Source of the DNA: a virus
Lineage: Duplodnaviria > Caudoviricetes
Direction: 5' to 3' (one strand)
IMG/VR virus record: IMGVR_UViG_3300037826_000110
Coordinates: 1 to 56,674 of that record
DNA length: 56,674 nucleotides
Position numbers and translations under genes: made by a program. This document shows, in pieces, positions 4,401-46,575 of the stretch (the stretch's first letter is position 1; the number at the start of each line of letters is the position of its first letter). Under the pieces are notes generated by a model. The model saw nothing but the letters and a program-made list of their open reading frames with translations. It was not told the origin of the DNA and ran no database searches.

Positions 4401-6562
4401 GCCTCTTTGCGCAGGTTGACGAAGTCGCGCGCGGCGACGGTCAACCCCCCGGTGATAGCTGTACCGCGCATAGCCAGGCCCTGGGAGATATCCTGCAAGT
4501 CATTGGCCAATAGCCCGATGCCCTGTGATCCTTCGCGGGCATCATTCAGAGCCCGGGCGAAGCGGGTGACGGCATTGCCGGCGTCCTCGTAATCGCCCTC
4601 CATGCGGCGTGCTTGGCGGTTGATGTCCGCCTGTTCGCGTTCGGTGCGTTTGAGGGAGCCGATGATGGTGTTGATGTCGGCGTCCGCTTCCCCCATCTCC
4701 TGCTGCACGCGGTCCCAGGAGATCCCTAGCGCCGCAGCGCGTTGCTTGGCCTCGCCTTCCAGTTGGGCCAGGCGTTGGGTTTCACGGGCGGCGCGTTCGC
4801 GGGCTTTGACCTGCTCACGGAGTTCCACTGTCTCGCGCTTGGCGATCTCTTTGCGCTCCTGAGCCTCGGCCTTGGCCAGTTCTACGCGCACCTTGGCGTC
4901 GGCTTCCTGATCCTCGCCAATGGTGTCCAGGTATTTATTGATCAGCTCCACCATGTCGGGGATCACGCTGTGCCCGACCAGTTGATCTTTGACCCATTCC
5001 CAGACCCCGATGATGCCTTTGCCTGTCTCCTCGGCGGAGTCCTCCACCTCGCGCGCGGCCATCGCTTCGATCATGGCCTCTTTGATTTCAGCGCCGATGC
5101 GTTCACTGGCTTGGATCACGGGATCGGCGAGGGCACGGTCGGCTAAGTCCGTGATCTGCGCCACCTGCTGCGTGAGCCGTCCCAGGACCTCAGTCTCGCC
5201 CCCGGCCAGCTCCTCCATCGAGGTGCCCTTCTTGGCACGGTACACGTCCAAAACCTCAGACTTAGCTTGCTTTTGCAGTTTCTCGACGGCGTAGCGTTCG
5301 GCCTCTCCCAAGCCGGCCATGGCTAACTTGGCCTCGTCCATACGCTTGATCACTTTGCGCAGTTCGAGGTATTGCTGATGCAGTGCGTCGGTGGTGGATT
5401 CGACGACGCTACCCAGAGCACGCTCGGCGGAGATAAAGTCCACCATGGTCCCCTCGGCCGCTTCGGGCATTTCCACCTCGCCGCCTTTCTGCAACCCTCC
5501 GAAGGCGCGCTTCATCTGCGCCTGCAGGCGAGTGCGCTCGGAGGAGATGGTCTCCATTTCCTCTAGCGCAGCAGCCGCTTGACTCTGGCCATAGGAGCGC
5601 AGGGAGTCCGCCGCTTGCTTGACGCTCTCCATGCTCCACTCTTTCCAGAAAGCCATCTCGTCCTGCATGGGGCCTTCCAGTTCGCGGCGCCGGAACATTA
5701 GGCGTGTCTTGAGCTCATCGGCGTCACCGGTGAGCATCTCGAACTGCGCGTTGGTGACGTCCTCGCTGGCCTCCATGTAGGCGCGCTTAAGGCGCTCCAC
5801 CTCTTCCTCCCACGCGCGTGCCTCCTCGGTCACTGCCCCCACGGAGGGGGAATAACCTTCAGGACGGCTAGCCAAGGCACGCTTCAGTTCCTCGTGGACT
5901 TGCTCCGCATACTCGCGCAGCGGCTCCAGTTGCGCCTCCGCCTGCGCGCGGGCGGCCTCCTCGGCCTCGGCGACCTCGGAGGCCAGTGGAGCCAGCTCCT
6001 CCTCGATAGCTTTGCGCGCCTTGCGCACCTTCCCACGTGTATAGCGCTCGTCGAAGCCCTTGAAAAGCTCGGAGAGTGGTCGCAGCTCGCCCCCGGCGAG
6101 GGGTTGCACCTTCAACGCAGACAGCTCCCCAAAACGCTCATTCAGGCCCTTGACGCGGGCTTGGAGCTCCTGGAGTTTGAGCGTCAGGTCTAGGGCCTTT
6201 TTATCCTGCTGAGTGAGCGCCTCTTCCAGTTCTGGTAGATTATCCAGCATATCGGCAGCGATGTCGGTTTTCTCGCCGGCGTGCACCAAACCCGTGACCT
6301 GGCCCTGCAGCTTGGAGAGTTGGCCTTCCAGGATGTCCCACTGCCCGCTGAGGGATGAGGCTATCGCGCGCCCCAGGCTGCCCGCGTCCTTGCGCAGGGA
6401 AGCCATGTGTTCGCTGGCTTCTTCTAGCCCGGCGATGTCGATCTTGCCCTCAACGGTGATGGCCGCGATCTGCGCTTCGATAGCCTCGCGGATGCGCTTG
6501 GCATCCTGCGTCGCGTCTTTGCCGTCTATGCGGATCGTGATTTCAAATTCATTGTTCGCCAT
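1448..6562 (-). CDS. Tail tape measure protein
   Basis: 1704 aa, Ala/Glu-rich helical; TMP core motif (AFKYVG...LADNAIRGSQAGTSLR); follows tail chaperone genes. Confidence 0.93.
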   Translation of the reverse strand: MANNEFEITIRIDGKDATQDAKRIREAIEAQIAAITVEGKIDIAGLEEASEHMASLRKDAGSLGRAIASSLSGQWDILEGQLSKLQGQVTGLVHAGEKTDIAADMLDNLPELEEALTQQDKKALDLTLKLQELQARVKGLNERFGELSALKVQPLAGGELRPLSELFKGFDERYTRGKVRKARKAIEEELAPLASEVAEAEEAARAQAEAQLEPLREYAEQVHEELKRALASRPEGYSPSVGAVTEEARAWEEEVERLKRAYMEASEDVTNAQFEMLTGDADELKTRLMFRRRELEGPMQDEMAFWKEWSMESVKQAADSLRSYGQSQAAAALEEMETISSERTRLQAQMKRAFGGLQKGGEVEMPEAAEGTMVDFISAERALGSVVESTTDALHQQYLELRKVIKRMDEAKLAMAGLGEAERYAVEKLQKQAKSEVLDVYRAKKGTSMEELAGGETEVLGRLTQQVAQITDLADRALADPVIQASERIGAEIKEAMIEAMAAREVEDSAEETGKGIIGVWEWVKDQLVGHSVIPDMVELINKYLDTIGEDQEADAKVRVELAKAEAQERKEIAKRETVELREQVKARERAARETQRLAQLEGEAKQRAAALGISWDRVQQEMGEADADINTIIGSLKRTEREQADINRQARRMEGDYEDAGNAVTRFARALNDAREGSQGIGLLANDLQDISQGLAMRGTAITGGLTVAARDFVNLRKEADAASRALGLNREMSDRMAEGIVNLSADLAVLDPESTAQGVTAWATATGQLVETQEDLNALLSQTAPVQQLAMLGQADIGTVTDATTASINQFELSLADTTRVVSVFNKVSDDTLAEIDHVAEAFKYVGTDAASLGESIEDVGAQLSVLADNAIRGSQAGTSLRSVYKNLATPTAAAADELERLFGVQQPFFDQEGNWIGMARAVDMLAAATADMTDEQRRATLGEVFETDALNAMIQLIREQTKAREEGVNALEARAEDLGQTALDTWEQKVGDWEESDVYRVEQAKMRWKSLWLTIGQQGLDMALPYLEQGADFLDEITQMTERYPWIVEAGAAIGAGAIGLGAVFGALTIATKTANLIRGILTAFEAAMKGRPSAEQQFQTTVVSAAEQFAQIVRQSAVEEGEIEKAGAVEEAQIEKSGALEEAQIEKSSALNVASLLGRTMGALAIAGIGSQALTGQGIGGWFSREEGVAAGQARLGEFAGLSEEELRAELGTLTEQIAALNEVVGPDTGMFTFLDRDFWEGAFGAGDQGQIIKDLMGPVQSFSATAMVDKLAELEELQAGIEAALASGDGIDDFDQKWIELARAETEAAEVTATHTYNLYEYNRTAQDTIQLTDAEVNAAKLYVEMLQEQEQAVTDFNAELAEVNRELQDDLAQMERDYYASREQRTQQFHESQAESERQHQERQAQDAAEHAKRMRRMEEDFKDREQDLIASRDAYGLIRERRQHEKEKSRAEEDYADQQAQRQQQYEQQRAQRQQQYEQDMLDAEAQYQEQREQRILEHQEQVAEMQAEHEEDMARLKQQYFDKINAELEYYSRSEEQQQQYHAAMLEDTKAWLEANRSIWQDYIANLPTPSSGYGGGSTGDGMSAWDQYTQYSGSYQRGGYIPITGLADVHAGEFVLTPSTTRMAEAAAGGSLTQDSLLASMTAQQSDGGRRISINIPIQASFSGMRAQDMETVRGELHSLERRVYRNLSEQMEGA

Positions 6563-6594
6563 TTTATGCTATACTCACTATAGGAGGTAATTGA

Positions 6595-6795
6595 ATGAAC
6601 AAGGGACCAAATCTTAGATTAGACCAAGTATTTCTTAGATTGGGTTGTATTTTTGCTATTCTTGGAATTGTTGTTTTGTGCATCGTCTTTGGGCTGTCGG
6701 CTCTAGCTAATCCTAAACCCGCTCCAATCTCCCTCGCAATACATTCTTTGCTTGCTTGTACAGTTGTTCTTCCATTCGCGTACTCAACCCAATAA
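6595..6795 (+). CDS. Small antisense membrane protein (moron-like)
   Basis: Strong SD (AGGAGGT) before ATG, extended -10 TGCTATACT about 6567-6575, AT-rich start, hydrophobic segments. Confidence 0.55.
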   Translation: MNKGPNLRLDQVFLRLGCIFAILGIVVLCIVFGLSALANPKPAPISLAIHSLLACTVVLPFAYSTQ

Positions 6796-7258
6796 ACGGA
6801 CGCGGGGGCACCGGATTCCCCGTCTCCGTCGTCCCCCCGCTGTGCAGCGTCTCGATACGGTTGGGGGTGGCCGGGTCGTCCTTGGCACTCAGAATCAGAC
6901 CCGTCCACCCCGGCCCGCGTTGCACCTGCGTGATGTTGCGAGGGTGCCGAGGATTGACGAAGCTGAGCTTCAAATCCCCAGTACGCTGTAAGATCGGGTG
7001 CTCGCCGCCCGTGCGAAACGGTACGCCACGGGCGTCAATCCCGCTGCGCCGCTCCGCGACCGTCATCGGACGCAGCGGAGCCCAGCGCGCGCCGTTGGGA
7101 GCGCGTTCGTGCCCGAAGTTGTCCGCGATGCCCCGGCGCGCAGTGTCCGCGACGATCTCAGCCTCGCGGTTGGAGAGCTCGCCCACCTGGGTCAAGCCGG
7201 TCCATAGTCTATCCCAGGTGCGCGGGTCCTTTAACGCGGTGCGGAAAGTGGCTTTCAT
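6713..7258 (-). CDS. Virion morphogenesis (Mu gpG-like neck/tail completion) protein
   Basis: F..E.AP.G.RWAPL, IL..TG.L and VPPRPFIG motifs. Confidence 0.8.
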   Translation of the reverse strand: MKATFRTALKDPRTWDRLWTGLTQVGELSNREAEIVADTARRGIADNFGHERAPNGARWAPLRPMTVAERRSGIDARGVPFRTGGEHPILQRTGDLKLSFVNPRHPRNITQVQRGPGWTGLILSAKDDPATPNRIETLHSGGTTETGNPVPPRPFIGLSTRMEEQLYKQAKNVLRGRLERV

Positions 7259-7301
7259 AGCAGGTCGTCGTTGACCAACAACAGATCAAACTCCACGGCG
7301 A

Positions 7302-7436
7302 TCACAGCACGTCCTCCCAGGTGTCCGCGCCCGCGATGGTCACGCTGCCATATTTGTGCACTGCGCAAATCCCTGTTGCATCGCCATTGGCGACGACGAT
7401 GCCGAACGGTAGCGTTCCGTATTCAAATAGCTTCAT
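7302..7436 (-). CDS. Hypothetical 44-aa protein
   Basis: ATG at 7436 with GGAGG SD; MKLFEYGTLPFG...; below the ORF-track cutoff. Confidence 0.4.
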   Translation of the reverse strand: MKLFEYGTLPFGIVVANGDATGICAVHKYGSVTIAGADTWEDVL

Positions 7437-7448
7437 GTCTTCCCTCCA

Positions 7449-7465
7449 TTATTTCCCAGGAAATA
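7449..7465. promoter_or_regulatory. NBS-like palindrome 1
   Basis: TTATTTCCCAGGAAATA. Confidence 0.8.
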
Positions 7466-7501
7466 CTCCTCTAGCCAAAAGGCGCGGATCGCTCCGCGCC
7501 T

Positions 7502-7775
7502 CTACATCTCCAATTTGATGCGCCGATCCAGCCAGTTCAACAAGCGCATATCGTGCAGCCACCAATCCGGCTGCTCCAACAGGCTCCCCGGAAATGGTAA
7601 AAACTTTTCGCCGAAAGACTTCCATAGCTTCCAGATCTCAAAGCTCAGCTCCGGCCTATGTAGCGCCCAATCATCGTCATCTTCCGCCGGTTGCTCCTGA
7701 GCCGCCTCCAGCGTCTCATTGTAGTCAATTAACCAGTTTCGGATTCGGACGCGGCATTCTCCGCGTCTTTTTTTT
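7502..7775 (-). CDS. -1 frameshift extension of the tail chaperone (gpGT-like)
   Basis: GAA AAA AAA at 7776-7768; the -1 frame is open to 7502 and ends with an LPFPGSLLEQP motif. Confidence 0.7.
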
Positions 7776-17204: not shown

Positions 17205-18674
17205 TCAGCCCCATGGGCTGTTTTTCTGCAATCGTTTATGTGATGACAGCGGATTAGCTGTCGGTTGTCCCCCGGCTGTAATGGCCAAGGCCCATGCCCA
17301 GAACTTATCCGCGTGGTGTTTCTCGTTGCGTTCCGTGTCGAAGCGCGAAAGCTTGCCGCTAGTAGTCGTGCGCTTGATACTGTGAATTTGATAGGCGATA
17401 TCCCGATCCAGGGGAAGCGGGGTATTACCGCGCTCGGCCTGTACCCGGGCCTCCACCGCCCACAACTCCTTATTGGCGTTGGTGAAGTCCACGCCCTCGG
17501 CCTTGCCAGTGCGCATCAGATTCTCTGCTAGCTGAGCGCCAATCCCGTTTTGGTCGATCAGGATCTTGGTCACCGGCAGGCGCTTGATGATCTCGCGCAC
17601 GCAACGCTCCTGATCGTCATACGGCACGCGATCCAGGCTCACCGAGAAACGCAGGGGGAGCCTTCCCGCTGTGGAGAGTCCCACTAATGCCAATTCCGAT
17701 AGGTCACGCTTGCGTCCGATGTCCATCCCCCCGGCGAAGGCCGTCTCGATTTCCTTGCGCTTGATAGCCAGTTGCACGTCGCGAATCAGATCCAGGGCCT
17801 CATCTACGTTACGCGCGTGCCAGAACTTTTCTACGGCTGGCGTCTGATTACGCTTGATCAGCTCCCACGAGATCCACGCGGTAAGCTCATCCACCCAGGC
17901 ACACTCATATTCCTGCTGGAAATCCTCCAGGAACATGTTTTCAAAGATATCAATAAGGGCTGGGGTGCCGAAGGCGTATACGCGCTCTTCGGTGGGCATG
18001 GACGGCGCGACGTTGGCGGCTAGTTTGACGTTGGTGCACAGGGCTCCGACTGTCCACCACGGCAGGATACGACGATGCTGATCGTAGCCCGGATACGCCC
18101 GCATCTGCTGCGTGACGATCTCCCAGAATAGCCCCCTGGCCCCTAGTGGCGAGGAACCGATGCGAATGTAGCCGTCACCTTTGGTGGTCGCAGGAAGCGC
18201 CGCGCGATATACCTCACGGTCCAGACCGTGGGGGTAATGCGCCATCTCGTCGAGGTAGATACGGGCACGTGGTTTCCCACGCGGGGGACGGCAGGGATGG
18301 GAGATCAGCCGTGAACCATTGTCAAGTTCTATCGCGGAGCGGCTGGCACGTTTGAGGCCCGGTCGAACGGGCGGATCCAGGGCCTCGATAGTGGCCTTGG
18401 CGTAGCGGATTTTCTCTTGGGCCTCCTCGCGGTTGATGGAGACGAAGATGTGTGGGGTGTCGGGGTTGAGGATGCCGTCCACTACGGCGTCCAGCGCAGC
18501 GGTGAAACTCCAGGCGATCTGACGTGCTTTGACGTCGATGCCAAAACGTTCGGTATTATTAAGGTACAGTAATTGAAACAGCTCCCAGTGTGCGTCCGGT
18601 ATCCCAGCCGCAGTAGGGAGATCGAGAAACTCTACGGCAAATTGCGCCTTGGCTGATAGGTCCGTAAGGCGCAC
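17205..18674 (-). CDS. terL: Terminase large subunit (Mu gp28-like)
   Basis: KARQIAWS Walker A, IYLDEMA Walker B, GMDIGRKRD, HADKFWA. Confidence 0.93.
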   Translation of the reverse strand: MRLTDLSAKAQFAVEFLDLPTAAGIPDAHWELFQLLYLNNTERFGIDVKARQIAWSFTAALDAVVDGILNPDTPHIFVSINREEAQEKIRYAKATIEALDPPVRPGLKRASRSAIELDNGSRLISHPCRPPRGKPRARIYLDEMAHYPHGLDREVYRAALPATTKGDGYIRIGSSPLGARGLFWEIVTQQMRAYPGYDQHRRILPWWTVGALCTNVKLAANVAPSMPTEERVYAFGTPALIDIFENMFLEDFQQEYECAWVDELTAWISWELIKRNQTPAVEKFWHARNVDEALDLIRDVQLAIKRKEIETAFAGGMDIGRKRDLSELALVGLSTAGRLPLRFSVSLDRVPYDDQERCVREIIKRLPVTKILIDQNGIGAQLAENLMRTGKAEGVDFTNANKELWAVEARVQAERGNTPLPLDRDIAYQIHSIKRTTTSGKLSRFDTERNEKHHADKFWAWALAITAGGQPTANPLSSHKRLQKNSPWG

Positions 18675-19210: not shown

Positions 19211-19948
19211 TCATGAGACGATCATAACCCTCTGCGTGCGCTTGACACGAATGAATAGATTCAGTCCCTTCTTGCTGCGGCGGATTTCTAGATGCTTACC
19301 CCATTTACTCTTGAGATAAGCTAGCTCGCGCTCGTTACGTTCACCGGAGCGCATGTGCGCGTTCCCTCCGGTGTTGTTAAAGCGCTGATGCATTATGGCG
19401 CAACGCTCGTCCACAAGCACGCAACGGTATTTTAGGAGTGCTTGGAGACAATAGTCGATATCCGCGCGCAGCTTCAACGAGGTGTCGTAGCGCAGCTCGC
19501 GTCCAATAATTCCAATCGCGCCCCCGACCCAGTTGTTAAGGGAAAATGGGTTCTGGGGGTGAAACTTGCGTACATCGCCACTGTGCTGTGAGAAACCAAA
19601 CACACAGGTCCCGAGGCCCCTGGCGATCCGGGCCGCGTTCTCAACCATTTGCAAAGCTACGTCAGGATCGACGACAGTCGCGGCGGCGGTGGTGCGTCCG
19701 GCGTTCATGCGCAGGTGGCTGACGTCGTCATCGACCATAAAGACGGTCTCCTCTGTGATATTATCCAGGATCCACTGTCGCAGGGGACCAATCCCCGCCA
19801 CGCTCGACGGGTGCGTGATAATTTCTGCATCCAGGACGGCATAGTCCTCCGCTTCGGCCTCATCTACGCACACGGCGGCCGAGGGGAACAGCTCAAGCGC
19901 CTTCCCACATAACGCTACTCTTCGTCGACTGGGGATGATGATGCGCAT
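19211..19948 (-). CDS. GT-A fold glycosyltransferase (TAGT/GREB1-like), putative DNA modification
   Basis: IIIPSRRR, RQWILD, VFMVDDD, DIDYCLQ motifs; ATG 19948 with GGAGG. Confidence 0.7.
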   Translation of the reverse strand: MRIIIPSRRRVALCGKALELFPSAAVCVDEAEAEDYAVLDAEIITHPSSVAGIGPLRQWILDNITEETVFMVDDDVSHLRMNAGRTTAAATVVDPDVALQMVENAARIARGLGTCVFGFSQHSGDVRKFHPQNPFSLNNWVGGAIGIIGRELRYDTSLKLRADIDYCLQALLKYRCVLVDERCAIMHQRFNNTGGNAHMRSGERNERELAYLKSKWGKHLEIRRSKKGLNLFIRVKRTQRVMIVS

Positions 19949-20686: not shown

Positions 20687-20742
20687 AAAAAAGGGGCTGC
20701 CCCCATCGCTGGGAACAGCCCCGGAATCCTGTCTCGCTGGGC
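20687..20742 (-). terminator. Late-leader conserved motif plus intrinsic terminator (copy 2)
   Basis: GCCCAGCGAGA...TTCCGGGGCTGT/GCAGCCCC-TTTTTT. Confidence 0.75.
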
Positions 20743-21354: not shown

Positions 21355-21593
21355 ACGTCACCTCTCCCTGGACGACGGAAACGAAAGACGTTACCGCCAA
21401 ACTTAACCTCCGCGATGCATTGCACGCTATGCGGATGACGATATTTGCAGTCTCGTAGCAAAACATCCGCGAAGCGCAGCATATAGCCCAGACACTCCAC
21501 GGCAAAGGGTTTGTCGCGCAGCCGTTGCCGGATGTCCTGTAAGTCCTCAAATGATACTTGCGCTTTATGATTAAGCGCGTATACTGTAGTCAT
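21351..21593 (-). CDS. Hypothetical protein
   Basis: CACGGAGGT SD before ATG 21593. Confidence 0.6.
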   Translation of the reverse strand: MTTVYALNHKAQVSFEDLQDIRQRLRDKPFAVECLGYMLRFADVLLRDCKYRHPHSVQCIAEVKFGGNVFRFRRPGRGDV

Positions 21594-21621
21594 CTCAATC
21601 ACCTCCGTGGTTGAGTAACAC

Positions 21622-21663: not shown

Positions 21664-22085
21664 TAATGTGTATGCCGTTGATGGTGGCTCAGCGTTTGGC
21701 TATCCACCACCGTATCAATCCCCGCAATCTCAGACTGGTAGATTTTTCCGTAGTGATCCGAGTGCGGCAATCCCGACCGGATCAGGAATATGCAATGATA
21801 CCGCACGCCCCCCCCCGGAAATACCGGCGTCCCTCCACTGATAATGATGGCCTTCGGAAAGAAATTGCCGTCAATCCGATGCAGACCGCGCTTGATCCAC
21901 ACCACCACAAATCGATCCTCTGCCGGTTTCAGTTTATCCGGCGTCACCGCGCACGCCTCAAATTTCATTTGCCGTGCGGATGTCTGACGGTTGATGCGCA
22001 GCACACCGTCACAACCCCGCTGCGGCGTGTTGCTAAACAGCGGTAACCCCTCGCCTTGCTCAAACATATAACCCTGCTTCTTCAT
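21663..22085 (-). CDS. Hypothetical protein
   Basis: CACGGAGGT SD, 140 aa. Confidence 0.55.
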   Translation of the reverse strand: MKKQGYMFEQGEGLPLFSNTPQRGCDGVLRINRQTSARQMKFEACAVTPDKLKPAEDRFVVVWIKRGLHRIDGNFFPKAIIISGGTPVFPGGGVRYHCIFLIRSGLPHSDHYGKIYQSEIAGIDTVVDSQTLSHHQRHTH

Positions 22086-22107
22086 CTTCTCACCTCCGTG
22101 ATATCCA

Positions 22108-22719
22108 TTAAAACATCTGTAACTGTGTTTCCGCGTTGCCGGTTGGTTGCTCCTGCCGGCGTCGCTCCCACTCCGGGGCGTCGTCTTTGCCCTGTAACCA
22201 CAACTCTTGCGCTTCCTCTGCGTAGGGATCAGTGACGTTGCCTTGCGGATCCAGACGGCAGCCTTCGTCTAACCAATACTGCACATCGCGCCCCATCGCC
22301 CGACCGCGACCCGTGTGATTGTCCAGGGCGTGATCCGGGATGTCGTGGCGCTCGTCCATAAATTCCTGCGTGACCGCACGCTGAAAGTGATCGGCGACCC
22401 TCGACTTGGGTGCCCGACTCATTAGGAGCAGGGCGTTGCCCAAGATCAGACGGCAAGTGCCATCTTTGCCGTGCGATCGAAAAAAGAAGTACTGCGCACG
22501 CAGGGCCGGAATCGTGCTTAGCAACTCCGGACTGGCGATACCAATATCCTCGTTGACGATCACCAACAGACGCCGCCATAGGTATTGTTCGTAGCGTGGA
22601 ATCAGCTCCAGTGCCCAGTACATCGCCGAGCGTTCGTCTCCCCGACGAATCTCCTTCTGGATCGCCGAGATGACCTCCAATAGTGGATGGTTGTGCTGTG
22701 TATAGGCTCTAAATCCCAT
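22108..22719 (-). CDS. RarA/MgsA C-terminal-like protein lacking the AAA+ domain
   Basis: ISA.QK.IRRGD...A.YW...WRRL.VI..EDIG.A...KSR; no Walker A. Confidence 0.75.
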   Translation of the reverse strand: MGFRAYTQHNHPLLEVISAIQKEIRRGDERSAMYWALELIPRYEQYLWRRLLVIVNEDIGIASPELLSTIPALRAQYFFFRSHGKDGTCRLILGNALLLMSRAPKSRVADHFQRAVTQEFMDERHDIPDHALDNHTGRGRAMGRDVQYWLDEGCRLDPQGNVTDPYAEEAQELWLQGKDDAPEWERRRQEQPTGNAETQLQMF

Positions 22720-22760
22720 CGTTTCTTACCTCCTCTACCTCCGTAGTTTTTATATGACCT

Positions 22761-22825
22761 GCCTTATCAATGATCGGATGGTCAATCCCGATCAGACGCC
22801 CGGCCTAGAGGCCAGGCGTTTCGGC
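22761..22825 (-). ncRNA. Type II hammerhead ribozyme 1 (U3-A8 variant)
   Basis: GCC GAAA CGCC..GGCG UC^ UGAUCGGG-loop-UCCGAUCA UUGAUAA GGC; loop UGACC pairs with 3' GGUCA. Confidence 0.9.
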
Positions 22826-23538
22826 TATGTCTCGAACCCCTTTCCCTGCTCGCGCAGGCTAATGTAACGGTTGTGGCCGATGACCATGTGATCCAGGACA
22901 TCCAGCTCCATCAGTTTCCCGACCTCCACTAATCTGCGGGTTAGCATAATGTCCTCCGGCGAGGGGTTAGGATCGCCAGAGGGATGATTGTGCGCGACGA
23001 TGATCGAAGCGCAGTTACGGCGAATCGCCCCCCGAAAAACCTCCGCTGTGCGGACCAGGGAAGTGTTGAGGCTCCCCTTATAGAGGATTTCCTTGTCGAT
23101 TACGCGATTGCGCGTGTCCAGATATAGGACCGCGAAGTTCTCTTGCTCGGCATCCCCGATGTAGGGAGTGAGGATGTGCGAGGCATCCGAAGGAGACCGG
23201 ATCTGTTCACGATCCGGCCCGGATTCCAAGGTCATGCGCACGCCCAGTTCCAGGGCCGCCATAAGGCGCGCGGCTTGTGAGGGACCAATGCCGTCGATGG
23301 CCGTCAATTGACTCTCCTCCGCCCGGCGCAAACCGTGCAACGATCCAAACTTAGCGACTAACTGATTGGCAATACTCAGGGCCTCGCCCCCCTGTACAAT
23401 TGCCGCTAGTAATTCCACCAAGTTCACGTACCGCACGCCTACCTCACGCACGCGGTTTACCGGTTTCTCGGACTCCGGTAAGTCGTCCACGCGCAATCCA
23501 GGCGGGGTATGTTGCAACATGCTCATTTGTGCTACCAT
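22825..23538 (-). CDS. radC: RadC family protein (HhH plus JAB/MPN domain)
   Basis: GIGP..A..L.AALELG; EQENF.VL.LD.RN; AHNHPSGDP.PS.ED; VLDH. Confidence 0.92.
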   Translation of the reverse strand: MVAQMSMLQHTPPGLRVDDLPESEKPVNRVREVGVRYVNLVELLAAIVQGGEALSIANQLVAKFGSLHGLRRAEESQLTAIDGIGPSQAARLMAALELGVRMTLESGPDREQIRSPSDASHILTPYIGDAEQENFAVLYLDTRNRVIDKEILYKGSLNTSLVRTAEVFRGAIRRNCASIIVAHNHPSGDPNPSPEDIMLTRRLVEVGKLMELDVLDHMVIGHNRYISLREQGKGFET

Positions 23539-23569
23539 TCTCTTACACCTCCGTGGTTTTGTATGACCT

Positions 23570-23631
23570 GCCTTATCAATGACCGGGTGGTCAATCCCGG
23601 CCAGACGCCGAGGTTATCTCGGCGTTTCGGC
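23570..23631 (-). ncRNA. Type II hammerhead ribozyme 2
   Basis: GCC GAAA CGCCGAG/CUCGGCG UC^ UGGCCGGG/CCCGGUCA UUGAUAA GGC AGGUCA. Confidence 0.9.
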
Positions 23632-23805
23632 TAATCTCTCAATGGCCTCCCAGGGAGAATAGCGATTTCGGAAATACCATTCCAAATCACGCTCCAAAAC
23701 CTCCACCCCCCAGTGCTCGGCGATATTCAGCGCCTCGCGCATGTAATCCCAACGTTTTTCATAATATCCCGCCAGGCAGCGGTAATTAAACCAATCCCTA
23801 TACAT
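23614..23805 (-). CDS. Hypothetical 63-aa protein
   Basis: GGAGGG SD; stop codon lies in loop III of ribozyme 2. Confidence 0.6.
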   Translation of the reverse strand: MYRDWFNYRCLAGYYEKRWDYMREALNIAEHWGVEVLERDLEWYFRNRYSPWEAIERLAETPR

Positions 23806-23815
23806 TCACACCCTC

Positions 23816-24715
23816 CTACTGATAGGGGCACTCGCCCGGGATCAGGGGGCTAGGACCATTGGGGAAGGACACGATCTTGTGCTGCAATAGTCCGCGATAG
23901 ATCGTCCCCGCTATCCTTGCGGCCTCATCTTCGCCCGCGTCCACCAGATCCTTGATGTAGCGCTCCATCGCGCTGGCTACCGAGCGGGCCTTGCGCATCG
24001 AAGGAAGCTCGTCATCCACCGGAATCACCCGGTCCGGTCGCGCTTCCTCCTCCGCAGCGCGCACATCCTGGACCTTGGTCATAAAGGTGGCCATATCGAA
24101 CATCGCTTCCTGCGCCTGCTCTTCCAACAATCTCGCGCAGAGCTTGCGAAACTCTTTCAGGCGCGGGGTATCCACCTCCGCCAGATAACGCAGAGCAATG
24201 CGCTGCCGATTGGTATCCAGGTCGCGAAGCGCATACGCATATTTGATGCCCATCTGCCCGTCTTTGACTAATTTCTGAGCCTCGGGCACCGTATCCAAAA
24301 GCGCCAGTCGCAAGCGCACCCGCTGAGGACTCACGTTCGCAATCTTGGCGACCTGTTTGGCGTCCCAGCCAAATTTCTCCATCCGTTTTTGGTAGGCGCG
24401 CGCTTCCTCAATCGGATTCAGTTCGTTGCGTTGCACATTCTCCAAAAGCATGACGGAAGAGGCTTGCTGATCCGAAAGCGTGCGCACCAAGGCCGGAATG
24501 GTCTCGCGCTCCAGGAGGCCAAAGGCCCGCCAACGCCGTTCACCGGCTACCACCTGAAAGCGCTCCCCCACCGGTCGCAAGGTGATGGGCTGCGCGAGGC
24601 CGTGCTGCTTGATGCTGGCCGCCAGTTCCTGCAGGCTCTCTGTATCAAAGTCCTGGCGATCATTATCGCCGGGGTCAATTAGGACCATCCGTATATCCTG
24701 TATCTGCTCTTGCAT
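23816..24715 (-). CDS. ParB/RepB/Spo0J family protein
   Basis: ELAASIK.HG..QPI, VAGERRWRA, ENVQR.ELNPIEEA; start reassigned to ATG 24715 (GGAGGT SD). Confidence 0.9.
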   Translation of the reverse strand: MQEQIQDIRMVLIDPGDNDRQDFDTESLQELAASIKQHGLAQPITLRPVGERFQVVAGERRWRAFGLLERETIPALVRTLSDQQASSVMLLENVQRNELNPIEEARAYQKRMEKFGWDAKQVAKIANVSPQRVRLRLALLDTVPEAQKLVKDGQMGIKYAYALRDLDTNRQRIALRYLAEVDTPRLKEFRKLCARLLEEQAQEAMFDMATFMTKVQDVRAAEEEARPDRVIPVDDELPSMRKARSVASAMERYIKDLVDAGEDEAARIAGTIYRGLLQHKIVSFPNGPSPLIPGECPYQ

Positions 24716-24743
24716 TCTCTCACACCTCCGTGGTTTATGATCT

Positions 24744-24804
24744 GCCTTATCAATAATCGGGCGATCAATCCCGATTAGACGCCGGGGACTCCCGGCGTTT
24801 CGGC
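24744..24804 (-). ncRNA. Type II hammerhead ribozyme 3
   Basis: GCC GAAA CGCCGGG/CCCGGCG UC^ UAAUCGGG/CCCGAUUA UUGAUAA GGC; pseudoknot covaries to UGAUC/GAUCA. Confidence 0.92.
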
Positions 24805-24968
24805 TATAACTCATGGCGTTGCGCACGTCCAAAAGCGCGCAATTCGTAGTATCCGATCACACATCCGCCCACCTCGATAGTGAAACGCTGCGCATCGCAA
24901 TACCACGCATAATCCTCAGCATCACGCACATCCTCAAAATACACGCCTTCCACATTATACAATTCCAT
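24804..24968 (-). CDS. Hypothetical 54-aa acidic protein between two ribozymes
   Basis: MELYNVEGVYFEDVRDAEDYAWYC...; GGAGGT SD; not in ORF track. Confidence 0.65.
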   Translation of the reverse strand: MELYNVEGVYFEDVRDAEDYAWYCDAQRFTIEVGGCVIGYYELRAFGRAQRHEL

Positions 24969-24996
24969 TCTTACACCTCCGTGGTTTATGTGACCT

Positions 24997-25059
24997 GCCT
25001 TATCAATAGTCAGGTGGTCAATCCTGACTAGACACTGGAAATAACCCCAGTGTTTCGAC
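24997..25059 (-). ncRNA. Type II hammerhead ribozyme 4
   Basis: GUC GAAA CACUGG/CCAGUG UC^ UAGUCAGG/CCUGACUA UUGAUAA GGC AGGUCA. Confidence 0.88.
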
Positions 25060-25092
25060 TCTGTTAAGTTTCCTACATCGGAATCAGAAGTT

Positions 25093-25325
25093 AAAAAAAA
25101 TACTACGGTTTTGATATGGACGGGTATGGTCTTTCGCTATCGAATAGTATCGTAATCCTCGCCGGTACCACACTACCGTTGCTATTTCCCACAACTGCTC
25201 CCCCGCGTTGGGAATGGGATAATTCCTCCTCCGTTCCGTCAGTCACCCAGGTTCTCTGGGCGCTTGCGCGCGTGATCGTTCCTGAATCACTGACCGGGAT
25301 TCGGGTACCCCCCATCCCCCCGTTT
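25093..25325 (-). ncRNA. Candidate structured ncRNA of unknown family
   Basis: Nested helices seen by eye, a GCAA tetraloop hairpin and a terminal U8 tract. Confidence 0.5.
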
Positions 25326-25457
25326 TGAGTTTCCGTTATGTTAAGGTTCGTTTCATCTTTGTATATATAGTATAACGCATGCAAGCGGTTTTGTATATAG
25401 GAAATTAGTACTACGCATAAAATGTAATACATGACTAAACATGAAAACTTATCTTGC

Positions 25458-25490
25458 AAAGAAATAGGCCCATCCGTAAGGACGGGCCTA
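25458..25490 (-). terminator. Intrinsic terminator of the lysis operon
   Basis: TAGGCCCGTCC-TTAC-GGATGGGCCTA-TTTCTTT. Confidence 0.75.
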
Positions 25491-25511
25491 TAGAAGGAGG
25501 GGGTGGGGAAG

Positions 25512-25892
25512 TTAGGCGGACGCTTCCCGCACCTCCACCGCATGATCGCTGATTTTCTCGATGGTCACCCCGGCCACGGCGAAGGGACCGCGCGCTGCGG
25601 AGACCACGACGTCCAGAATATCCGGCCCCATCTCGGCCAAAACGTTGAGGTAATGCTGTAAACGCGAGGGACTCGGGCGCTCCTGATCAAGTTCCACCTG
25701 CAGCGCATCGACGGTATCGCGGGCTGCCAAGCGATCCACATCATCCAAGTCACTCTGATTGAGTGCGATAATTACCTCGTCACGCCAGGCCGCATTACTG
25801 CGCTGGGCTGGGTGGGTGATTTTATCGCGTCCCACCACGTCACCGCCGATATCGACCTCCCCACCAATATCGCCAAACGTTACACCGCTCAT
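25512..25892 (-). CDS. Hypothetical protein with N-terminal GGDVVGRDK motif and helical domain
   Basis: 126 aa, coupled start. Confidence 0.7.
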   Translation of the reverse strand: MSGVTFGDIGGEVDIGGDVVGRDKITHPAQRSNAAWRDEVIIALNQSDLDDVDRLAARDTVDALQVELDQERPSPSRLQHYLNVLAEMGPDILDVVVSAARGPFAVAGVTIEKISDHAVEVREASA

Positions 25893-26356
25893 AGCTCATC
25901 CTCCAAGTCTATGTCTATCTCGCGTAAAATCGCAAACACGCGCTTGAGCGTGCCGAACTCAAACGCCATATCATCTATGTTTTGCCGAATCCACTCCGTA
26001 GCATCCCACGAACCGGTATAGGCTCGTGAAGCCCCCAGCCAGTCGGCGATCATCTCGCGGATGTAGATTTCCGGCATAGGTAGCACTTCGTTTTCGCGAT
26101 TGCGCAGGACCCAATACTGATGATGGTGCTTATTGTGGTTCTGGTGGTGGAGCCAAGCGTTCAGGTAATCGAAATCTGGCTCCCCGCGTCGTTCGCCGCA
26201 GTACAGCCTAGCGTAGGGGGCAAACTCACAAGGTAAAAATTTGGAGAGATCGTGCGTAATCCGCAACCACAGCCCGATGCGCACCCTACGCCCGGCCAGA
26301 AACACAAACCACTTATGGCGCAGCACACGCCAAAAATATCGCCAATACACGCTCAC
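25889..26356 (-). CDS. HD-like (DUF5662-like) protein
   Basis: HK..V, HDLSKF..EF, HH..HNKHH..YW, MP..Y..EMIADW. Confidence 0.75.
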   Translation of the reverse strand: MSVYWRYFWRVLRHKWFVFLAGRRVRIGLWLRITHDLSKFLPCEFAPYARLYCGERRGEPDFDYLNAWLHHQNHNKHHHQYWVLRNRENEVLPMPEIYIREMIADWLGASRAYTGSWDATEWIRQNIDDMAFEFGTLKRVFAILREIDIDLEDEL

Positions 26357-28607: not shown

Positions 28608-28661
28608 AAAAACGGGGCAGGCGGCTATAAGCCACCCGCCCCGGAATATTTCTCGCTGGGC
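28608..28661 (-). terminator. Late-leader conserved motif plus intrinsic terminator (copy 3)
   Basis: GCCCAGCGAGA...TTCCGGGGCGGG/CCTGCCCCG-TTTTT. Confidence 0.75.
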
Positions 28662-39694: not shown

Positions 39695-41143
39695 ATGAAA
39701 ATCACAGAAGCAACACCGCAGCAAAGAAACAACGCTCCCTTTGTGACGCATATGACTGCCAGGAACATCGGCAAGGGGTACGCCGAGACCCTAATACTAA
39801 TCGCCTACTATCTCCCGGACGGCGACGTCCTAGAGGGAACTAGCGAAGAATTCGGTGCAGTCTTCGACATTCACGAACGCAGCTTCAGGAATCATGTCAA
39901 GGCCCTATCACGAGCCGGATGCCTACTTTACACGAAACCAGAATACGGGCTATACAAAATCATAAGAATTTCACAGACAGAAGAGGAACTAAACACCCTC
40001 GTCGATTGCTGGAATTTCATTCCAGATGAGATCAAAAAGCGCGATGCGTTGGATTTTGTCACGTCTGCTTTCCTGTCGAAATGGAAAGAATTTTCCGAAA
40101 GTGGGGGGGAATGGAAAGAATTTTCCACCTTAGAGGAAGAGGCACCGGAAGCAAAACGGAAAGAATTTTCCGAAACTCCGCAAAATGGAAGAAATTTTCC
40201 AAGTTCAGACGAAGAGGAGCAAGGCGAGGAATGGAAAGAATTTTCCGAAAGTGGGGGAGAATGGAAAGAATTTTCCAACTCGGATGGCGAAAGACGGAAA
40301 GAATTTTCCGTAACCCCCATTGAACGGAAAAAAATTTCCGAAAGTGGGGGGAAACGGAAAGAATTTTCCGAAAGCGATCCCCCTGTTGTTGTTATTAATC
40401 ATGATCATGTCTTTGAGAGACAATTTTCTAAAGATAAAAAACAACAACAGCAAGCATCTGAGCCACAAAACGGCGATTCAGCGCAGGGGTTTGCGTCGAA
40501 CGATTTTTCCGAACGTCAAAAGCTTGCCTTGAATGCTCTGCGTTCCGTGCGTGTGGGTCGCAATGCACAGCGTGAATTCATACGCGACCATGATCCGCAG
40601 CGCATCCTAGACGTCGTTGCGGCGGCGAAGGTTGACGCAACCGTCAAAAACAAAGCGGGGTATGTGTGCAAGGCCCTCCGCGAAGGGTGGGAGATCGCGG
40701 TGCCGAAATCCGAGCCCGAGAAACGTCAGGAAAAATGGGCCGGATGGGAACAACAAAACGCCCAAGCCACCGCGCGCCTGCATCAAGCGGTCGCCGCTGC
40801 CGCCGAGCAATCCGGTAACGGCAACGGGGGCGAATCTGCCAAGATCTGGCGCGGCGTCCTGGGTGAACTGGAGCTCCAGATGACCCGCGCGACCTTCGAC
40901 ACCTGGCTGCGGGATACAAACTGCCTGGGTCGGGAGGATAACGGCGACGGTGAGACGCTGATCATCGGCGTGAAGAACGGCTACGCCGTGGAATGGCTAG
41001 AACATCGGCTGTACACCGTCATCCAACGCACACTCCACCGCGTCGTGGGGCAGCACACAGAGGCGCGCTTCGTTGTCTGGGATGAGGAAGCGCAGGAAGT
41101 CACAGAGCCGGCCTTGGAGCCGGTCACAGGAGGAGTAGGGTGA
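39695..41143 (+). CDS. Replication initiator: N-terminal HTH, iteron-encoded linker, C-terminal DnaA domain I
   Basis: IW..VL..L..QM..ATFDTWL..T...L.IGV.N.YA.EWLE.RL. Confidence 0.85.
   Translation: MKITEATPQQRNNAPFVTHMTARNIGKGYAETLILIAYYLPDGDVLEGTSEEFGAVFDIHERSFRNHVKALSRAGCLLYTKPEYGLYKIIRISQTEEELNTLVDCWNFIPDEIKKRDALDFVTSAFLSKWKEFSESGGEWKEFSTLEEEAPEAKRKEFSETPQNGRNFPSSDEEEQGEEWKEFSESGGEWKEFSNSDGERRKEFSVTPIERKKISESGGKRKEFSESDPPVVVINHDHVFERQFSKDKKQQQQASEPQNGDSAQGFASNDFSERQKLALNALRSVRVGRNAQREFIRDHDPQRILDVVAAAKVDATVKNKAGYVCKALREGWEIAVPKSEPEKRQEKWAGWEQQNAQATARLHQAVAAAAEQSGNGNGGESAKIWRGVLGELELQMTRATFDTWLRDTNCLGREDNGDGETLIIGVKNGYAVEWLEHRLYTVIQRTLHRVVGQHTEARFVVWDEEAQEVTEPALEPVTGGVG
40081..40369 (+). 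repeat. Replication origin iterons (9 x 16 bp)
   Basis: A(T/C)GGAAAGAATTTTCC at 40081, 40111, 40156, 40185, 40231, 40261, 40294, 40324 and 40354 (two are variants), followed by an AT-rich tract. Confidence 0.85.
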
Positions 41144-45995: not shown

Positions 45996-46015
45996 ATTAT
46001 TTCCTGGGAAATAAT
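45996..46015. promoter_or_regulatory. NBS-like palindrome 8
   Basis: ATTATTTCCTGGGAAATAAT, at the convergent junction. Confidence 0.85.
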
Positions 46016-46575
46016 TACCAGGATACAGCGTCGTATTTCCACTCCAAGATATCGTTTACCGTCTCGGCATCCGCTGGAACCGGGCAACGTACCCGTGAGG
46101 GCCTGATAGACGCCAAAGTATATCCCAGCCGCTTATCAATCTCAACAATAGTCCCGATCATTAAAGGGCGATTGTTGGATGTGCGATCCACAGAATAGGA
46201 CCGCCCCACAATCAGATCGCCCTCCGCGAAGGGCTCTTTGGGATCAGTGCAAACTGGCGTCTCTGGCGCTGCGAGTCCCAGCGCCTCTTCAATCATATTG
46301 GCGCTGAGCGAGGAAACATTATGGAAACGGCGTGTATTGGGGTGGAAGCTTGATGCTGCAAGCTTCCCCTTTCCCCTGCTTCTATACCAATGCTCCAGAA
46401 TACCGACCACGCATCCATCAGGATCCAGCACCTGAACAGCATAGTGCCCACTGGTAGGCGGATCAACGCGCTCCCCCTCCATATAACCAGCCTGCGAGTT
46501 AACATCGCGGCAAGAATACGCACCGCGATATTGATCGGAGACCTTCTTCGTTGCATTCCAAATTTTGCTAATCAT
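46015..46575 (-). CDS. Hypothetical protein
   Basis: Coupled ATG at 46575 with SD. Confidence 0.65.
   Translation of the reverse strand: MISKIWNATKKVSDQYRGAYSCRDVNSQAGYMEGERVDPPTSGHYAVQVLDPDGCVVGILEHWYRSRGKGKLAASSFHPNTRRFHNVSSLSANMIEEALGLAAPETPVCTDPKEPFAEGDLIVGRSYSVDRTSNNRPLMIGTIVEIDKRLGYTLASIRPSRVRCPVPADAETVNDILEWKYDAVSW

Follow-up and report, generated by a model that had tools for sequence, protein, structure and literature searches.

Four type II hammerhead ribozymes with a U3-A8 core at the gene junctions of a phage block encoding ParB- and RadC-like proteins

The DNA analysed here (the window) is a complete virus record from IMG/VR (IMGVR_UViG_3300037826_000110; Caudoviricetes) of 56,674 bp, with direct terminal repeats (a 127-bp repeat at each end) and with most of its long open reading frames (ORFs) on the minus strand. 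Our subject is a block of co-directional minus-strand genes in which four copies of a short element, read here as type II hammerhead ribozymes, lie between the genes. In the direction of transcription, the block comprises orf54 (24804–24968; 54 aa, no family match), which is the sole gene between copies 4 and 3; parB (23816–24715), encoding a ParB-like protein with ParB_N and HTH_ParB domains (PF02195, 3.7e-25; PF17762, 3.3e-13; phrog_3264, 2.9e-41); orf63 (23614–23805; 63 aa, no family match); radC (22825–23538), encoding a RadC-like JAB protein (PF04002, 5.4e-42; phrog_10276, 4e-34); and an MgsA_C-like gene (22108–22719) that encodes only the C-terminal domain of MgsA/RarA (PF12002, 2.7e-12; phrog_33349, 6.5e-18). 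An earlier inspection of the DNA without database searches (the sequence-only reading) had divided this one co-directional block into orf54, ParB plus orf63, RadC and the MgsA_C-like (there, rarA-like) gene onward, with an element at each junction, and this placement was borne out.

The elements occupy positions 24991–25059 (copy 4, the first in the transcript), 24738–24804 (copy 3), 23564–23631 (copy 2) and 22755–22825 (copy 1), all on the minus strand between co-directional genes and spaced by 253, 1174 and 809 nt. These spans include the 3′ tail that forms the pseudoknot; the sequence-only reading had located all four elements, but its low ends stopped at the last base of stem II and excluded the tail. 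Each copy reads, in order, as the 5′ strand of stem II, GAAA, the stem III hairpin, UC, the stem I hairpin, UUGAUAA, the 3′ strand of stem II and the tail A-GGUCA. Copy 4, for example, has a stem II of GUC/GGC (one G-U pair), a stem III of 9 bp, a stem I of 8 bp, the loop AUUGACCA, the core UUGAUAA and the 3′ tail AGGUCA, while stem III of copy 1 has 10 bp. Read from the sequence, C17 lies at 25031 (copy 4), 24778 (copy 3), 23604 (copy 2) and 22795 (copy 1), placing the predicted cuts at 25031/25030, 24778/24777, 23604/23603 and 22795/22794; the 5′ ends previously expected at 25030, 24777, 23603 and 22794 had therefore been read correctly. A search of the whole window for the pattern GAAAC..GTC..TTGATAAGG returned four hits on the reverse strand and none on the forward strand, and a control with the pattern read backwards returned none on either.

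The structure was assessed on an alignment of the four copies (A1) against 24 pairs, 19 of them nested in stems II, III and I and five in the pseudoknot. Standard pairs were found in 96 of 96 cells, and nine pairs were changed on both sides (four in stem III, four in stem I and one in the pseudoknot), in keeping with the earlier observation that stems I and III differ between copies yet pair. None of 500 shuffles matched the observed pairing, pair count or covariation score, and sliding the 3′ partner by 1–3 columns left only 22.9–40.6 % of cells paired. Every copy forms all 19 nested pairs; loops cap stems I and III, and stem II is left open, as in the type II permutation. The pseudoknot between loop I and the 3′ tail (20/20 cells paired) reads UGACC/GGUCA in every copy but copy 3, where it is UGAUC/GAUCA; columns 63/86 thus hold CG in three copies and UA in one. 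Minimum free energy folding gave the three-way junction in three of the four copies (z = −2.5 to −4.1). When a covariance model built from the four copies (R1) was applied, unfiltered, to the full 56,674 bases, it returned exactly four matches, with scores that are high by construction (92.5–97.2 bits; 93.1 for copy 4), the next match scoring 15.5 bits. The pattern of compensatory substitution points to selection at the RNA level. Among the strain differences listed from other DNA runs, two fall within a ribozyme (25039 A>G and 25045 C>T, plus strand; run X2); both lie in stem III of copy 4, where they replace G-U pairs by G-C and A-U.

The four copies are paralogues, with a mean column identity of 85 %, and belong to a repeat of ~100 bp (family D1) that runs from the ribozyme through the ribosome-binding site (RBS) to the start codon at each cassette border. 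The sequence-only reading had raised the possibility that such repeats serve as recombination points for the exchange of gene cassettes, and one can imagine them acting mainly as DNA, either at sites of recombination or cassette exchange or in the manner of a small mobile repeat, with the RNA fold incidental. A ribozyme-plus-RBS repeat at every border would suit this idea, as would the presence of other genes between the homologous genes in the two closest relatives (contigs L005 and L006, described below) and the occurrence of hammerheads of the same subtype beside unrelated genes in other contigs. However, substitutions between copies are concentrated in the stems and are compensatory, which DNA-level selection does not predict, and the copies are just ~80–85 % alike, with short identical runs. 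Moreover, contigs from DNA runs X2 and X3 differ from the window by strain differences and by two joints, both inside parB (24118/24582 and 24500/24582) and none at the repeats. The proposal of recombination points thus found no backing, and we regard a primarily DNA-level role as very unlikely.

At the level of individual nucleotides, U4, G5, A6, N7, A9, G12, A13, A14, the A15.1-U16.1 pair and C17 are invariant in the four copies. Every copy carries the core UUGAUAA and GAAA, with U3 and A8 in place of the literal C3 and G8, which are absent. The elements share with the type II hammerheads of RF02276 the open and short stem II, GAAA, A15.1-U16.1, C17, UGA at positions 4–6, A9, a Watson–Crick pseudoknot between loop I and the tail and a location between phage genes; they differ in having U3-A8 rather than C3-G8 and a UGACC/GGUCA pseudoknot rather than the UGGC/GCCA of the Rfam consensus. 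In hammerhead chemistry, the 2′-OH of C17 attacks the adjacent phosphate, with G12 as the base and the ribose of residue 8 as the acid. Since residue 8 acts through its ribose, an A at this position can serve while paired with position 3. The sequence-only reading, in which the four elements are type II hammerheads whose core pair is U3-A8 and whose pseudoknot covaries, is well supported in this respect.

This arrangement is known and does not represent a new kind of element; the core variant is rare, but U3-A8 covariation, the pseudoknot and multi-hammerhead prophage arrays have all been in print since 2011. Perreault et al. (2011; PMC3088659; PLoS Comput Biol 7:e1002031) described the first type II hammerheads from nature. 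In their account, ~40 % of hammerheads have a pseudoknot between stem I and stem II, and mutation and rescue experiments demonstrated that rapid cleavage depends on it; covariation of C3 and G8 to U3 and A8 is noted for several natural examples, and cores of this kind are stated to have been proven active in vitro before. The exchange in the window copies is the same compensatory one, although the window array carries the variant in all four members. The same text describes three prophage arrays (Clostridium scindens, Azorhizobium caulinodans and Agrobacterium tumefaciens) in which hammerheads flank single genes or short blocks, the flanked genes varying, on a co-directional phage transcript; these were cut at all sites during in vitro transcription of ~2-kb fragments, and one array was also cut in E. 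coli. Another report (PMC8782182) describes three type II hammerheads near phage-like genes that cleave in vivo in Desulfovibrio vulgaris, and a 2017 review (PMC6155905) repeats the phage association and calls the role of bacterial and phage hammerheads an open question. Taking an array as at least two same-strand hammerheads flanking genes or short blocks in a phage genome, the four elements of the window constitute one. It differs from the published arrays in flanking genes for ParB, RadC and an MgsA_C-only protein and in that its cleavage is predicted; it also permits a comparison with related phages whose corresponding junctions carry a promoter-like repeat and terminators.

The wider occurrence of such elements was then surveyed. 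The U3-A8 pattern CGAAAC..GTC..TTGATAAGNCAG was present in 65 stretches of IMG/VR, on which R1 gave 73 matches at E ≤1, and the canonical version of the pattern, with CTGATGAGNCAG, returned at least 120 matches. A descriptor scan of all fetched loci (L005–L285 and the window), with positions 3 and 8 left free and a pseudoknot of at least 4 bp required, identified 179 distinct type II elements, in which the 3-8 pair was C-G in 150, U-A in 26 and A-U in 3, with no other combination. The proportions are biased, as C-G or U-A patterns had served to select the loci, but the lack of any mismatched 3-8 pair among the neighbouring, unselected elements is informative. Three or more elements occurred on 18 locus strands, including that of the window (range 3–8, with the maximum of 8 in L186), and only in the window was every member U3-A8, the others being either all C-G or mixed C-G/U-A/A-U. 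Recent paralogy, as seen in the 85 % mean identity and in a repeat that extends through the RBS, is the simplest explanation for the uniform array. Several arrays also hold, beside C-G and U-A members, type II hammerhead-like elements with the A3-U8 core AUGAUUA (L103:2899–2969, L111:2128–2198, L132:661–731, L139:2166–2236, L145:1909–1979, L121:4972–5042 and L142:463–533).

Searches of viral, genome and metagenome collections for the exact loop, core and tail pattern of the window elements returned no matches, leaving no near-identical relative available for alignment. The covariance model R1 did recognise more distant members. In L050, a phage contig with a RadC gene, it found a CUGAUGA type II hammerhead with a UGACC/GGUC pseudoknot (45.8 bits), and in L274, a contig from a Dehalococcoidia metagenome-assembled genome, a four-member array (5915–7651) with one UUGAUAA and three CUGAAGA cores. 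The L274 array has the stem II, the UGACC/GGUCA pseudoknot and the CAUA tail seen in the window, with a locally repeated RBS after each member, and no protein is common to L274 and the window.

On this evidence, we consider it highly probable that the four elements are functional self-cleaving type II hammerheads of the pseudoknot subtype with a U-A 3-8 pair. Several points weigh against that view, the first being their scores against Rfam. No match was returned at the gathering threshold in the whole window, and the search with the type II model that the sequence-only reading had proposed succeeded only in part. In an E-value scan of positions 22000–26000, Hammerhead_II (RF02276) aligned end to end with copy 3 (32.8 bits, E 0.00056) and copy 2 (27.7 bits, E 0.012); copies 1 and 4 were not listed even at E ≤10, leaving all four below the gathering score of 37. 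When the whole window was scanned by E-value, copy 2 was the sole ribozyme of any class listed (E 0.17). The low scores reflect the two substitutions in the core and a tail unlike the consensus, and the threshold is an operational cut-off rather than a biological defining feature. Further points are that paralogous copies leave few independent events behind the covariation counts; that 40 strain differences are listed in our table, with 223 others outside it; that stem II is no longer than 3 bp, a shortness for which Perreault et al. (2011) nevertheless give natural, active precedents of one or two pairs; that reference 32 of the same paper, by its title, makes tolerance of 3-8 exchange dependent on the surrounding elements, so that the U3-A8 ribozymes of the window could be slow; and that the transcript limits proposed below were set by simple consensus scans. 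Separately, a RAGATH-1 hammerhead register at 23599–23647 (the end of orf63 and stem III of copy 2; 23.5 bits, E 1) lacked a core base and was judged to be a chance match.

The same considerations favour an alternative that sees the elements as relics of hammerheads, decayed or very slow, which now act as structured intergenic spacers, whether as RNase-protective hairpins, RNase III sites or translation-coupling elements, in a transcript that stays polycistronic. The core departs from consensus at two positions, the copies fall short of the Rfam threshold and the title of reference 32 would allow for impaired activity. Against decay, the other 11 conserved core positions are intact in all four copies, and the two changes form a compensatory pair that is natural and was previously proven active (PMC3088659, main text). 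The pseudoknot, which is relevant to catalysis alone, has been kept by a compensatory change. Finally, the absence of unpaired 3-8 combinations from all 179 related elements speaks for selection on the catalytic fold. We therefore consider relics unlikely and retain the interpretation of the elements as active ribozymes.

The position of the elements relative to the flanking genes is close-fitting. The UAG stop codons of orf54 (24806–24804) and radC (22827–22825) overlap copies 3 and 1, respectively, by the first base of stem II, while the UAA stop of orf63 (23616–23614) lies inside the stem III loop of copy 2, the last six codons of orf63 being ribozyme sequence. The earlier count of three copies that overlap the upstream stop thus stands, with overlaps that differ in kind. 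For copy 4, the closest long open frame stops 44 nt upstream and is probably not a gene. On the other side, a conserved linker leads to a GGAGG Shine–Dalgarno (SD) sequence and the ATG of orf54 (24966–24990, part of the repeated unit), parB (24713–24737) and radC (23536–23563), and a linker with GGAGG twice leads to the ATG of the MgsA_C-like gene (22717–22754), all on the minus strand. The SD and ATG fall 19–32 nt past the end of each R1 match, which runs 3 nt beyond the tail. The GGAGG starts 14–18 nt after the element ends of the sequence-only reading, which had put this distance at 15–20 nt. The RBS consensus AACCACGGAGGTG is also found, with no hammerhead, ahead of the ORF starting at 21602 (21593–21617, family D8), indicating that the RBS part of the repeat is used alone as well.

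The same packing was evident across the 179 elements of the survey. An open frame of at least 50 codons ended between −60 nt of GAAA and C17 in 167 of the elements; of the 201 such stop events recorded, 131 had the first base of the stop 5–9 nt ahead of GAAA, most often at −5 (46) or −6 (37). Where a stop triplet occurred at −5, it closed a frame of at least 50 codons in 46 of 59 cases, against an expectation of one third (p = 2.7e-12). Downstream, an SD-preceded start within 50 nt of stem II was found for 139 of the 179 elements, and the next start codon was 20–39 nt past stem II in 126 of 156 cases. Stop overlap and SD spacing are thus a rule of the class rather than a peculiarity of the window phage. 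No such rule is stated in the main text of the 2011 paper (PMC3088659), in which ‘stop codon’, ‘Shine-Dalgarno’ and ‘translation’ do not occur, and a narrow full-text search (‘type II hammerhead’ with ‘stop codon’) found no account of it, returning one unrelated preprint. Together with the comparison of relatives given below, this packing prompts a possibility that we put forward tentatively and rate as rather unlikely: in phages, the type II hammerhead and its RBS may constitute an exchangeable module of punctuation, taking the place of a terminator and promoter. If this were true, a terminating ribosome would cover the 5′ strand of the ribozyme, and cleavage and translation of neighbouring genes could be coupled.

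Candidate limits for the transcript came from scans of the flanking minus-strand DNA. A terminator-like hairpin (12 bp and a T run; 25464–25491) directly follows a TCAD2-like ORF and probably ends the preceding unit, and a strong terminator-like hairpin (13 bp and TTTTTT) lies at 20693–20722. Between the four ribozymes, the consensus scans detected neither a promoter-like site nor any terminator-like hairpin whose stem exceeds 5 pairs. This suggests a transcript that probably runs from the A+T-rich stretch after 25464 to ~20693, with the MgsA_C-like gene probably opening a last unit that reaches the hairpin at 20693–20722. A weak promoter-like site in the A+T-rich stretch (TATACA-17-TATACT, 25369–25397; a consensus match only) is a candidate for the start of this ribozyme-bearing transcript. 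The ~400 nt between the upstream hairpin and copy 4 (25060–25463) consist of this A+T-rich promoter-like part and then a G+C-rich leader of ~300 nt, in which no convincing gene was found. An ORF of 146 aa with no family match (25103–25543) spans the terminator.

In the mechanism that we propose, one minus-strand transcript would start after the terminator at 25464–25491 and end at that at 20693–20722, and each element would fold as it is transcribed, forming the stem III hairpin, the stem I hairpin, the 3-bp stem II and the 5-bp pseudoknot between loop I and the tail. Internal transesterification would cut the chain after C17, leaving a 2′,3′-cyclic phosphate on the upstream piece and a 5′-OH on the downstream piece. 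Copy 4 would shed a discarded leader of ~300 nt, and the remaining products would be a 253-nt orf54 RNA, a 1174-nt ParB and orf63 RNA, an 809-nt RadC RNA and a last RNA that opens with the MgsA_C-like gene. The stem I hairpin (8 bp) would open each downstream RNA from the first base on, ahead of the tail, the shared short linker, GGAGG and ATG, and each upstream RNA would end in the stem III hairpin and one nucleotide (C17). The ribozymes would in this way make 3′ and 5′ ends at once and give each cassette a standard hairpin-capped untranslated region independent of its neighbours. The sequence itself shows the structure, its covariation and the likeness to known hammerheads, and the activity of such arrays and of U3-A8 cores is taken from published work on relatives. 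From these we infer cleavage of the four elements, the limits of the transcript and any stabilising or insulating effect; division of one transcript into units is how such arrays are usually interpreted in the literature (PMC3088659).

An engineered counterpart may be seen in the insulator RiboJ, derived from a satellite-RNA hammerhead, which sits upstream of the RBS, strips variable 5′ RNA, leaves a 5′ hairpin and makes expression of the downstream gene context-independent. The window elements likewise lie just before the RBS; they are natural and of type II, and their insulating role would be by analogy.

Cleavage at two neighbouring ribozymes could also excise the RNA between them for subsequent ligation to circular or spliced RNAs (e.g. 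a 253-nt orf54 circle), joined either by the reverse hammerhead reaction or by an RtcB-type ligase. The 2′,3′-cyclic phosphate and 5′-OH ends that this needs are those that cleavage yields, and the possibility was raised for prophage arrays by Perreault et al. (2011; PMC3088659). However, neither type of product was detectable in that work, and nothing in the sequence brings the ends of one unit together. We consider this outcome extremely unlikely and favour linear, separate mRNAs.

The closest phages through RadC are L005 and L006, which encode ParB (67 % identity) and RadC (59–62 % identity) in the same order as the window, and MgsA_C in L006 only (60 % identity). The comparison with related phages suggested by the sequence-only reading was therefore possible at homologous ParB, RadC and MgsA_C junctions, but hammerheads are absent there. 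Neither Rfam (at gathering or at E ≤1) nor R1 (at E ≤10) detected one in either contig, and Rfam at gathering returned nothing but one tRNA from 16 RadC-relative loci. Instead, the homologous genes are preceded by a repeated element consisting of two AAACTCGTG boxes, TTGACA, an 18-nt spacer, TG-A-GAGAGT (TGAGAGAGT), an SD and a start codon, present in four copies in L006 (1840–1945, 3190–3290, 3905–4005 and 6365–6465) and two in L005 (2895–3005 and 3895–4005). L006 also has terminator-like hairpins behind ParB, RadC and MgsA_C. The repeat was tried as an RNA structure and rejected, with a consensus energy of −3.5 kcal/mol and covariation at none of 11 predicted pairs, and is hence read as a DNA-level, promoter-like element; a simple promoter scan misses it because of its second hexamer, GAGAGT. 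Sought in the window, the element gave one match with three mismatches, no more than expected by chance. At the same junctions, therefore, the relatives have a terminator and a promoter-like repeat where the window has a hammerhead and an SD, which fits the production of separate mRNAs, in a comparison that covers two relatives and a sequence that is promoter-like only.

A few further observations concern the phage as a whole. When window open frames of at least 70 aa were compared by tblastn with ten hammerhead-bearing loci, RadC alone was matched (in L032 and L050), making gene content uninformative on the host. The likeness of the L274 array gives a weak hint that the window phage may infect a member of the Chloroflexota. 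The large terminase is encoded at 17205–18674. The ORF at 19211–19993 matches phrog_842 (beta-glucosyl-HMC-alpha-glucosyltransferase, E 1.3e-14), which raises the possibility of sugar-modified phage DNA. Copies of a 20-bp palindrome, ATTATTTCCCAGGAAATAAT, are scattered over the genome (7444–7467, 13368–13391, 15850–15873, 28566–28589, 35631–35654, 39108–39131, 41732–41755 and 45992–46015); nine members of this family (D3) are listed, the degenerate ninth (46006–46029) overlapping the eighth. One copy lies directly past a further minus-strand terminator-like hairpin (28613–28643), and the palindrome may be a phage operator or promoter motif. Seven iteron-like repeats, AACGGAAAGAATTTTCCGAAAGTGG (families D2 and D4), at 40078–40394 fall within the plus-strand ORF 39695–41143 and may represent a replication origin inside an initiator gene.

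With a complete genome, four paralogous U3-A8 ribozymes in one block and the same RBS after each, the window provides a clean natural test case. The four copies are natural variants with which to gauge the U3-A8 core in a pseudoknotted type II scaffold. The contrast between hammerheads and promoter repeats at the same junctions is the most interesting comparative point of our analysis. A comparison of the window phage with its sister phages could show what ribozyme punctuation gives a phage, be it equalised or uncoupled expression, mRNA stability or a need for fewer promoters.

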